A stretch of 62,925 nt of DNA, filler included, from Reclinomonas americana ATCC 50394 (taxonomy: Eukaryota), in the NCBI GenBank assembly GCA_048213135.1. It is 4 parts of 3 records of this genome, joined end to end, with 100 filler letters (N's around TTAATTAATTAA, not from the genome) between each part and the next. Parts side by side here need not be neighbours in the genome. Positions count along the whole stretch, not along the records: positions 1 to 29,740 come from PS015133.1; 3 more parts are not named here. The stretch is one strand, 5' to 3'. Shown piece by piece: positions 5,556-8,500 of this stretch. The translations under genes and the position numbers were made by a program. The stretch's first letter is position 1. Every line of letters begins with the position of its first letter. The notes under the pieces were generated by a model. The model had not been told where the DNA came from. It saw only the letters and a program-made list of their open reading frames with translations, and did no database searches.

Positions 5556-8500
5556 CAATGTGTACGCGTGCCCTTGAGATGAGCCGCAATCTTCTTGGTG
5601 CTGACCATCCGCAATCGCTGGACGTTGCTGCAAGTCTTGGGGAGGCACTATGCAAGATTGGTCGGGACGGGGAGGCCATTGATGTGTTACGCGACACGGT
5701 GCAGCGTCAGAAACAGATGTTGCCAGAGAGTAGCACGGAGACAATGGTCGCAATGACCTGCCTCGCCCAGGCTCTTCACAACACCGGTGACAGCAAGGCT
5801 GCAGTGGACATTGGACGCGAGTTGCTTCTACGACGTCGCAAATTCTGCGGTGACGATGACAACAACACAGTCGAAAGCGCCTACCACCTCAGCGAGCATC
5901 TTCTTGCCGTCGGCGGCAAGCGCAATTTTGCGGAGGCCTTTAATTTGCTTACTGATACGCGCGAGCGGTGGACTCGGCTGCTTGGTTCTGACGCACGGAG
6001 CACACTTGCTGCGTCGTTCAGACTTGGGCACGCCCTGCGGCGACTCGGTCGACCTCAGGAAGCCGTTGAAGCGCAGTGTGATACACTGGAGCGGCTGAAA
6101 CGGTTGCCTGTACCGGATAAGAGTCTCGAGGTGGCGGTTATGGTCGATCTTGCATATGGCTATGCGGAGTGCGAGAATTACGTAGCGGCAGTTCGAGTCG
6201 GTCGAGAACTAATCCCTCTTGAACGACAGCAGCTTGGCGATGACAGCCCAGTCACGGTGAACAGTATTCGGACCTATGCGGCCAGTCTCGCGGCTGTTGG
6301 CGGGGTCGCGAACATCAAAGAAGCGGAGCGCCTAATGGTAGAAATCATGAGCAAGCGGGACCGATTGTCTGGTCCTGAATTTGGTGCAAAGGAAGACGAT
6401 GAAAAGCTTATGTTTGTAATCCGTGTCGCACTTGAAGGAGTGCCGCGCGGTGAAGAAGAGGGGACAGAGACTAGCAAGAAGAAGCAGGACTCTTCTGCAG
6501 GTGAGTTTGTGCCTTGTCTCCTCCGGTCACCGCCTTCTCTTACTCACTTGCTTCGTGTGCTTTCGGACGCAGCAGTGCCTGTCGACGCCACTCATTCGTC
6601 CTCTCGATCATCGGTTTCGTTGCTGATCACGCAGGCCTCTCTTTCATGTGACATGACCACTTACAAGGCATGCGTCCCCGCAGGCATCTGGAGCATCTCC
6701 CCCTCCCGTCGTCGCCTCCTCTTCATCTCGCACACCAGCCGAGAAGGTTGACCCCGTCGGTGGAAATGGACAAGCTCTGCCCCAGCCTGATGCGCTGCAG
6801 CAAGATCTGGAGGAACAGCGGCAGCGGACAGCCGAGTGGCAGGCGCGTTTGCAGCACCACGAACAGACCGCTGCTCAGCTGCGACAGGAAGTTGAGGCAG
6901 CGCAGCGTGGAAAGGAGGCATGGCGGCAGCGGACAAGCGAGTGGCAGGAGCATGTGCGGCAGCAGGAGGAAACTGTGCAGCGGGTGCAACAGCAGATGGC
7001 GGGACTGCAGCGACAACTGGACGAGCAGCAAGCGCAGATGAGCGAGTGGCAGCGGCGTGTGAAGCAGCAGGAAGCGACCATCGCGGAGCATGCTGCCTCG
7101 CTCCAACAGCACGAAACTGCGCGTACCGCGCTGCAGGAGGCGCTGGATCGTGTGGACGAGCAGCGACAGCGCGAGCATGACCGAGCACAACGACTCGAGG
7201 CTGATTTGGCTGCCGTGCAGCGCGATCTCACCCACCGAGGTGCGTGCGTCAGCAGGAGGTGAAAGGGGAAGTGTGATGATGATTGGAGACTAACATTGTT
7301 TGATGATGATGAATGCAGCGCCGTTGACGGCATTCTCGTGGGAGCAAGTGGTGTCAATGAGCAACAATTTTGCGGAGCGACTGGGAGGTGATGGTGGACA
7401 GGGCAAGGTGTTCTGCGGTCAGTGGGCCGGACAGAGTGTGGCCATCAAGGTGTTTGACAGTGCGCTGCCGTGGTGTATTGAGTCGTTCTCCAATGAGGTG
7501 AGGGTGGTGGATGGGAGAAGGATGATAGAAGGAGGTTGTTTTCTTCTCATTCTCTTTCTGCTTGCATCGCAGTTGGAGAAGCTCAAGGCGGTGAGTGTGG
7601 CTGGTGTTGTACCGCTGATTGGGTTTGCGGAGTCGGACGACGGCAAGCGATGTGTGGTGCTTGAGGCAATGAGGTGCGTGTGAGGAGAAGAGGGCGAGCA
7701 GAGATGTAAGTTACGCAAGCGGGTTGAACAAGACTTAATGAGAGAGCATGAGGCAGGACGTCAGTGCTGGATGCAGTTTTTTTGTCTTTCCGTCTGGCTT
7801 GGTTGATGATCACCACCACGCCTCTTTGTCGTTCCCGAGAGAGGATGGGAGGTGTCATCTGTTCATGTGCACTCACTCCTTCGTGATTCACAGTGAGCAC
7901 AACTTGGAGCACCGACTGCTGCAGTGGGCGGAGCGCGGACTGCCGTCCATGTCGATTGAGGCACGCATGACGTGCATGCTGCGATGTGCCGAGGCTGTTG
8001 CTTCGCTGCACAAGTTGCGTGTCACATGCCTCGTTGTCTGTTGTTGGCTCTCCATTTCTTTGGACTCACTTTGCTGATGATGCAGGCATGTGAGTGAGAG
8101 AGATCATGCGTGTTGTCTGTGTGCGTTTGCTTCATTCTTCTCTTTATTGACTCACTCGTGCCTTTCTGTGCGCTTTTCGACATTCGCAGAATGGTACGTG
8201 TGTCTGTTCTCCGTCCTCTGCTCATTTTTCTTCCACTCACTCACTTTCTCTCTCTCCCTCTCTCAGTGATCCATCGCGACCTGAAGCCAGCCAACATTCT
8301 GTTCAACCACAGTGGAATGGCCTACATCGCGGACCTGGGAGTGGCACACTGGTTCCGCACCGAGGGGGTGAGTGACACTTTCCTGTTCTGTCACTCCCTT
8401 CCCCTTTCCTCCCCTCATCCCTTCCCTCTCCTTCTTCGTGCCACAGACGCACTTGTCTGTTCACTTTGCTGGCGACCCAAAGTACGCCGACCCCAAGGCC

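Follow-up and report, generated by a model that had tools for sequence, protein, structure and literature searches.

A 62,925-nucleotide (nt) stretch of Reclinomonas americana ATCC 50394 DNA (GCA_048213135.1; filler included, hereafter the window, along which all positions are counted) carries on its + strand three tandem paralogues of one gene encoding a TPR / coiled-coil / kinase / RING protein. In copy 2, the interval 8014-8266 within the kinase-coding part most probably consists of three short spliceosomal introns separated by two constitutive 4-nt exons, GCAT and AATG, as judged from the DNA. The joins 8013>8086, 8089>8190 and 8193>8267 would supply 8 nt between CAC AA and TG ATC, and the predicted product, L-H-K-H-N-V-I-H-R-D, would form the loop that leads from the preceding helix to the catalytic loop of a candidate RLK/Pelle-like kinase. 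Two 4-nt microexons yielding H-K-H-N-V-I-H-R-D had been proposed by an earlier sequence-only reading, and this is the best supported of the readings scored here, although a reading with one 8-nt microexon also stays in frame. All independent lines agree, and the two microexons come out best on each: on spacing and score against the profile, on the quality of the signals, in the shuffles, in the conservation between paralogues and in the pattern of substitutions.

The window is eukaryotic nuclear DNA with numerous assembly gaps (23 runs of N). In a self-BLAST of the window, copy 3 (11086-13707) is 87.8% identical to copy 2 across 2690 nt, and copy 1 (about 3493-4105) shows 76-80% identity. From its N- to its C-terminus, the host gene product comprises an extended TPR region (TPR_12, E=5.4e-34), followed by a coiled coil, then a protein kinase encoded in small exons and finally a C3HC4 RING (zf-C3HC4_3, PF13920, 40.7 bits with a cut-off of 27, E=2.1e-10) that displays the C3HC4 pattern; no transmembrane part is seen in this architecture. 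The HRDxKxxN and DxG motifs of a protein kinase domain are present, with HRDLKPAN and DLG read directly. Exon 8269-8367 alone matches Pfam Pkinase (PF00069) at profile positions 120-149 of 263 with E=2.1e-07 and 31.0 bits (the cut-off of 31.7 applies to a whole protein), and kinase catalytic loops in the PDB match exon 8267-8367. The upstream kinase exon by itself gave no Pfam match, and a PDB search with the N-lobe exon gave none either. The three paralogues are under purifying selection in the kinase frame: nonsynonymous (dN) and synonymous (dS) divergence between the exons of copies 2 and 3 is 0.011 and 0.138 (as proportions, pN 0.011 and pS 0.126) on both sides of the junction, and between copies 2 and 1 it is 0.108 and 0.824 in the kinase exons and 0.063 and 0.535 in the RING exon. 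Since the exons on either side are under purifying selection, the frame must carry through the stretch 8014-8266.

The exon upstream of this stretch (7894-8013) encodes the helix preceding the catalytic loop, as supported by frame, paralogue conservation and positions 94-130 of the kinase profile described below, and ends CTG CAC AA in phase 2. Candidate mini-intron 1 (8014-8085, 72 nt) begins with the donor GTTGCG, has a branch-like ACTCAC at 8064 and ends with the acceptor GCAG (GATGCAG); microexon 1, GCAT (8086-8089), would finish the Lys codon and encode His. Mini-intron 2 (8090-8189, 100 nt) would run from the donor GTGAGT to the acceptor GCAG (TTCGCAG), with ACTCAC at 8150 and no AG from there to the acceptor, and microexon 2, AATG (8190-8193), would encode Asn and the first base of Val. 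Mini-intron 3 (8194-8266, 73 nt) would begin with GTACGT, carry ACTCACTCAC at 8235-8244 and a CT-rich tract, and end with the acceptor TCAG (CTCTCAG), directly before the catalytic-loop exon 8267-8367 (TG ATC CAT CGC GAC; IHRDLKPAN...DLG), which is identified by Pfam Pkinase and by the PDB catalytic loops. Both 4-mers and their splice-like flanks stand in the sequence exactly as the sequence-only reading had given them, and its repeat of them in copy 3 was recovered as well: GCAT at 12673-12676 and AATG at 12777-12780 lie between putative introns 12599-12672, 12677-12776 and 12781-12848 on the + strand, and the catalytic-loop exon there begins TT ATC. For copy 1, the first microexon was found as proposed, with CAG|TTTG|GTGAGT placing TTTG at 4186-4189 after a candidate intron 4100-4185 (GTTGCG, branch-like GACTAATC, acceptor CCAG); GTGAGTGAGTGAGTGAGG then leads through 4246 on the + strand into an N gap (4247-4381), which hides the second.

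A kinase hidden Markov model (HMM), to which all bit scores for complete kinase readings below refer, was built here from 24 domains excised from proteins returned by our searches. On this HMM, the upstream exon stops after two bases of position 127, and the catalytic-loop exon sets in with base 2 of position 130. The aligned exons thus lack exactly 8 nt between them, which comprise base 3 of K127, all of residues 128-129 and base 1 of V130. Joining 8013 straight to 8267 is out of frame, and the microexon bases are thus required for both the frame and the conserved domain. The product with two 4-nt microexons (LHKHNVIHRD) scores 149.0 bits over positions 3-284 and aligns without a gap through the loop, whereas a single 8-nt microexon at 8086-8093 (LHKHVMIHRD) or its mirror scores 146.8 bits and one long intron (LHKLLIHRD) scores 140.7 bits with a one-residue deletion. 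Among the 24 domains, the two His residues are separated by 5 residues in 14, by 8 in 8, by 9 in 2 and by 4 in none; a spacing of 5 is produced by the two 4-nt exons and by the 8-nt exon, and a spacing of 4 by the long intron. Being in frame is on its own no evidence, because 381 stop-free in-frame paths exist when only GT and AG are required.

Donor quality was scored as the number of matches to CAG|GTRAGT over 9 positions and counted for all 7145 GT sites in the window. A plain count was chosen over a weight matrix since, without transcripts, the consensus itself would choose the intron boundaries. The donor of mini-intron 2 at 8090 (GTGAGT) matches at 8/9 positions, a level reached by 0.41% of the GT sites, and that of mini-intron 3 at 8194 (GTACGT) at 6/9, reached by 10.4%; five further scored copy 2 donors have 6-7/9. 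In each of the three units ACTCAC lies 18-35 nt upstream of the CAG acceptor, and the same motif precedes the acceptors of two other introns in the gene (6542, 7871). Hence a candidate intron complete with GT donor, branch-like motif and AG acceptor lies on either side of each 4-mer, the first donor being weak. The other short introns of the gene measure 60-79 nt, with one of 220 nt (7674-7893), and the mini-introns are of similar size.

How often chance produces such an arrangement was estimated for microexon-like sites, defined as CAG, 1-15 nt and a donor of at least 6/9, with a branch-like motif and introns of at least 50 nt. Of 5000 dinucleotide-preserving shuffles of the interior, 491 contained a microexon-like site, 178 an in-frame single site and 0 an in-frame pair. 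The natural sequence, taken on both strands (115.7 kb), holds 71 such sites and only 6 pairs spaced 50-150 nt apart, 4 of which come from this locus (copies 2 and 3); one of the remaining 2 is a tandem repeat of ~116 nt, and the last is read here as an ordinary exon end. That repeat, with a period of about 116 nt at ~21300-21660 (GAGGCAGGCTGCAGTGAGTGCCA...), imitates paired microexon-like sites.

Comparison of the paralogues points the same way. Copies 2 and 3 differ at 22 positions in total across the 253-nt stretch, and none of these falls on the 53 positions that make up the microexons, the donor hexamers, the CAG acceptors and the ACTCAC motifs, versus 22 among the 200 other intron positions (Fisher one-sided p=0.0044). 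The donor hexamer GTTGCG is identical in all three copies, and the sequence downstream of it has diverged in copy 1. The copy 1 intron is otherwise unalignable but retains CACAA|GTTGCG together with the 4-nt unit.

Several points weigh against two 4-nt exons. The main weakness of the whole reading is its very weak first donor: GTTGCG at 8014 matches at 4/9 positions, a level reached by 60% of the GTs in the window, and is the weakest donor in the gene. Exons so short are rare a priori, and two in succession are rarer. Copy 3 has a purine-rich tract immediately before the second acceptor; of the signal positions, the 19 that belong to the second microexon alone are unchanged between copies 2 and 3, which has a probability of P=0.11 by chance and is not significant; and in copy 1 the gap conceals the catalytic-loop exon along with the second microexon. 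The kinase HMM rests on just 24 distant domains, a small sample. The protein collections searched with the C-lobe, TPR and N-lobe contained zero annotated or transcript-derived products of this gene, and the junction was in none of the proteins. Finally, the reading with an 8-nt microexon is in frame, has the same spacing and scores merely 2.2 bits lower.

This last alternative, which we consider unlikely though worth keeping in view, would join donor 8014 and acceptor 8085 as above, include the 8-nt exon GCATGTGA (8086-8093) and splice from the donor GTGAGA at 8094 to 8267, giving KHVM in copy 2 and KHVI in copy 3; its mirror uses AATGGTAC (8190-8197) with the donor GTGTGT. One in-frame microexon is a priori likelier than two, and the GT at +5/+6 of a GTGAGT donor always provides a second donor 4 nt on, as in the copy 1 tandem GTGAGTGAGT. 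However, the donor at 8094 matches at only 5/9 positions as compared with 8/9 at 8090, and the second CAG-4 nt-GT unit would have to be a chance occurrence within a 173-nt intron, with CAG-AATG-GTACGT happening to carry its own ACTCAC 35 nt upstream, whereas the shuffles yielded in-frame single sites but never a pair. The mirror version in turn disregards the first unit, which is conserved in copy 1. The substitution pattern adds to this: the catalytic-loop exon opens with TG in copy 2 and with TT in copy 3, a change that would be synonymous with two 4-nt exons (GTG>GTT) and with a single long intron but Met>Ile with the 8-nt exon; given pS and pN above, this favours the two 4-nt exons about 11:1. 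The 8-nt form might perhaps coexist as a minor isoform.

A single intron, which the sequence-only reading had named as the rival, does have its donor GTGTCA, but at a corrected position: the intron begins at 8019, the exon would end at 8018, and the splice to 8266 would remove 248 nt and leave the inner splice-like signals idle. In copies 2 and 3 it preserves the frame and meets no stop, it needs no ultra-short exon, and it would be comparable to the 220-nt intron of the same gene. We nevertheless regard it as quite improbable. Its donor scores 3/9, poorer than GTTGCG; copy 1 carries GC at the position where this donor requires GT, so that the single intron cannot hold for copy 1; its product, one residue short, falls 8.3 bits below the best, with a spacing found in 0 of the 24 domains; and it turns the 8/9 and 6/9 donors into decoys that stayed unchanged between copies in which other positions differ. 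Some other path appears slightly more improbable still; candidates are the insertion of a longer exon, a retained third unit, both microexons combined with a GC donor at 8017, and copies that are decaying here. The many stop-free GT-AG paths leave room for one, retention of the third unit adds a stop-free 24-residue insertion and scores 130.7 bits, and the GC-AG variant (LHKLHNVIHRD) reaches 144.1 bits; yet these paths, at 130.7-144.1 bits, all lie under the best model and use poorer sites, and the GC-AG variant was considered and not favoured. Against decay, the dN and dS of the exons on either side show that the frame has been kept.

With two 4-nt exons, each ~70-100-nt unit has its own donor, ACTCAC-type branch motif and CAG acceptor and would be recognised by intron definition. 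Splicing would probably proceed in sequence, since only 4 nt lie between an acceptor and the donor after it, too few for both to be fully occupied together; the well-signalled downstream introns would probably leave first and intron 1, with its weak donor, last. Retention of intron 1 runs into TGA TGA. The sequence-only reading had also held that skipping either or both microexons destroys the frame, and this was borne out: the loss of either one brings up a TGA right behind the junction, and without both the reading frame changes and meets a stop about 120 codons further downstream. Its further suggestion of a regulated on/off switch is pure conjecture from the sequence, and constitutive, sequential splicing is the more economical account.

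The three mini-introns resemble one another in sharing TGTCTGT followed 25-35 nt on by ACTCAC (8035-8070, 8114-8155, 8201-8240 and the copy 3 equivalents). The combination TGTCTGT..ACTCAC has 7 hits in the window, 6 of them in these mini-introns. With splice motifs included, the pairwise similarity of the mini-introns gives p=0.015, 0.04 and 0.055 (200 mononucleotide shuffles each); once the donor and branch motifs are taken out, introns 1 and 2 are marginally similar (p=0.013) and the other pairs are not (p=0.395 and 0.364; 1000 dinucleotide shuffles each). Tandem Repeats Finder detected only a CTCT run in the mini-introns, and nothing marks them as introners or transposon-derived introns, the paralogous copies being their only matches within the window. 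A common origin of the three mini-introns is possible. A more specific scenario, in which they are recent copies of one intron inserted at positions 4 and 8 nt away (e.g., by reverse splicing or local duplication), thereby creating two 4-nt exons, and in which the weak first donor leaves intron 1 detained as a valve on kinase-RING output coupled to nonsense-mediated decay, strikes us as a long shot.

A U12-type intron, whose donor consensus is RTATCCTT, was not favoured, zero donors of this type being present at 8014-8025, 8090 or 8194. RNA structure pairing the splice sites was rejected: the folds of mini-introns 1, 2 and 3 give z-scores of -0.05, 0.56 and -0.06. Introns 7498-7572 and 8368-8446 fold more stably than their shuffles (z=-2.56 and -3.17; 2 of 200 shuffles as good in each). 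Introns 7498-7572 (75 nt, copy 2) and 12950-13033 (84 nt in copy 3, where 5 nt have been inserted) keep the frame and contain no stop; if retained, they would add 25-28 residues and leave the product untruncated. ACTCAC is the exact reverse complement of GTGAGT, the commonest donor; the + strand of the window contains 35 ACTCAC and 58 GTGAGT, compared with about 14 expected per 6-mer, and this complementarity generates acceptor-4 nt-donor patterns in mirror image at 8076 and 12663 on the minus strand. Inside the 220-nt intron, CAG|AGAT|GTAAGT at 7699-7708 lies only 28 nt from the donor of that intron, which leaves too little room for a separate intron, and is probably a chance occurrence or an alternative donor.

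The remaining kinase exons of copy 2, all on the + strand, are the N-lobe exon 7319-7497 (G-loop and VAIK; HMM positions 3-64 and translation), exon 7573-7673 (LEKLKAV...VVLEAM), the C-lobe exon 8447-8733 (Pfam Pkinase positions 156-200; HMM positions 174-217) and the last exon 8794-9082, which contains the kinase end, the C3HC4 RING finger (zf-C3HC4_3) and the stop codon. The catalytic-loop and C-lobe exons of copy 1 fall within assembly gaps. The 950-nt contig 4382-5331, between the N gaps 4247-4381 and 5332-5555, bears the end of the last intron of copy 1, its RING exon and the stop codon on the minus strand; this RING exon is 84% identical to that of copy 2, the dN and dS given above for the RING being its own. 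The contig is probably misoriented in the scaffold; otherwise, a local inversion would account for it. Long CAG/CAA (poly-Gln-like) and CAT/CAA trinucleotide runs occur inside and after copy 1 (2882-3260; 4430-4700 on the minus strand), and Gln repeats are far more abundant in the coiled-coil region of copy 1 than in those of copies 2 and 3.

Elsewhere in the window, genes for a DDHD-domain phospholipase-like protein, an EGF/DSL-repeat protein and two further protein kinases are found (17681-19778 -, 57553-58443 -, 31102-31457 +, 59387-59983 +). In both of these kinases the stretch from the His to HRD is coded without an intron. The DDHD-domain open reading frame (ORF) has its best relatives at 38-40% identity (animals, dinoflagellates and others). 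Rfam and tRNA searches of the window gave zero matches. Paired runs of 44 N with 12 bases between them (29741-29840, 58841-58940 and 61296-61395) look less like ordinary gaps in a scaffold than like an artefact of assembly or masking.

Relatives of the host gene are distant. The C-lobe exon had no match in a search against longer proteins; the TPR ORF had 34, the best of them 34% identical over 37% of the query; and an exhaustive search with the N-lobe returned 11 matches at E<=0.001 with 34-42% identity. The best N-lobe match, P0035 (39% identical), represents an ORF without splicing, in which the homologous intron (at the position of 7498-7572) is read through, and one match is a multi-kinase LRR protein. 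Judged by motif, the N-lobe matches appear to be mostly plant receptor-like kinases, and membership of the host kinase in the RLK/Pelle/IRAK group is put forward as a lead only. It resembles these TKL-type kinases in its N-lobe matches, mostly of RLK type by motif, and in its catalytic loop HRDLKPAN, and differs from them in its predicted linker from His to HRD, which would have 5 residues versus 8 in the plant matches, and in an identity of 39-42% at best. The combination of a kinase and a RING is also found in plant KEG, with which the host protein shares a RING on the kinase polypeptide, its own order being TPR, coiled coil, kinase and C-terminal RING.

At the RNA level, the arrangement may be compared with recursive splicing at zero-length exons, which proceeds through AG|GT ratchet points. 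In both, acceptor and donor almost abut and the sites would have to be used in turn; however, no AG abuts a GT at this locus, 4 nt separate them at both points, and in our model these 4 coding nt would remain in the mRNA each time. If real, the locus is a place where standard gene models fail; a gene finder would either take the single intron that is one residue short or break the kinase. It would also offer a compact natural case of two consecutive non-multiple-of-3 exons at the bottom of the size range, in a genome of short introns that should favour intron definition, and would be useful for testing the order of intron removal and the minimum acceptor-donor distance. The principle is already known, and a locus with two microexons changes nothing there.

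Closer precedents come from plants, for which one report describes 1-nt exons in APC11 and VPS55 and a rice transcript with adjacent 5-nt and 12-nt microexons validated by reverse transcription PCR (PMC8831610). According to the same report, the introns flanking plant microexons are removed consecutively, the upstream one tending to be detained (PMC8831610), and the removal order proposed here matches that description. The likeness extends to few-base internal exons in conserved coding regions, normal GT-AG introns, strong GTRAGT donors, a need of the exons for the frame and their being overlooked by annotation (PMC8831610). Unlike the plant cases, both putative exons here are 4 nt long, their introns are ~70-100 nt, and they are proposed from the DNA in a non-plant-looking eukaryote, in a host gene family without close relatives, so that deep conservation cannot be shown.

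Further reports describe a constitutive 4-bp microexon in human MPC1 (PMC9929638) and a run of three microexons (3, 18 and 22 bp) in RPS24 (PMC12207440, PMC11162997). On these accounts, constitutive inclusion is open to an exon of 4 nt, a length that 3 does not divide, and runs of microexons exist; yet both are long-intron genes spliced by exon definition, and the RPS24 microexons are alternative and C-terminal, whereas the exons proposed here lie in a catalytic core between very short introns. A narrow literature search on consecutive or ultra-short microexons found no case of two adjacent 4-nt exons, which does not imply that none exists. Every element of the claim has a precedent, as 1-nt, 4-nt and adjacent microexons are all documented.

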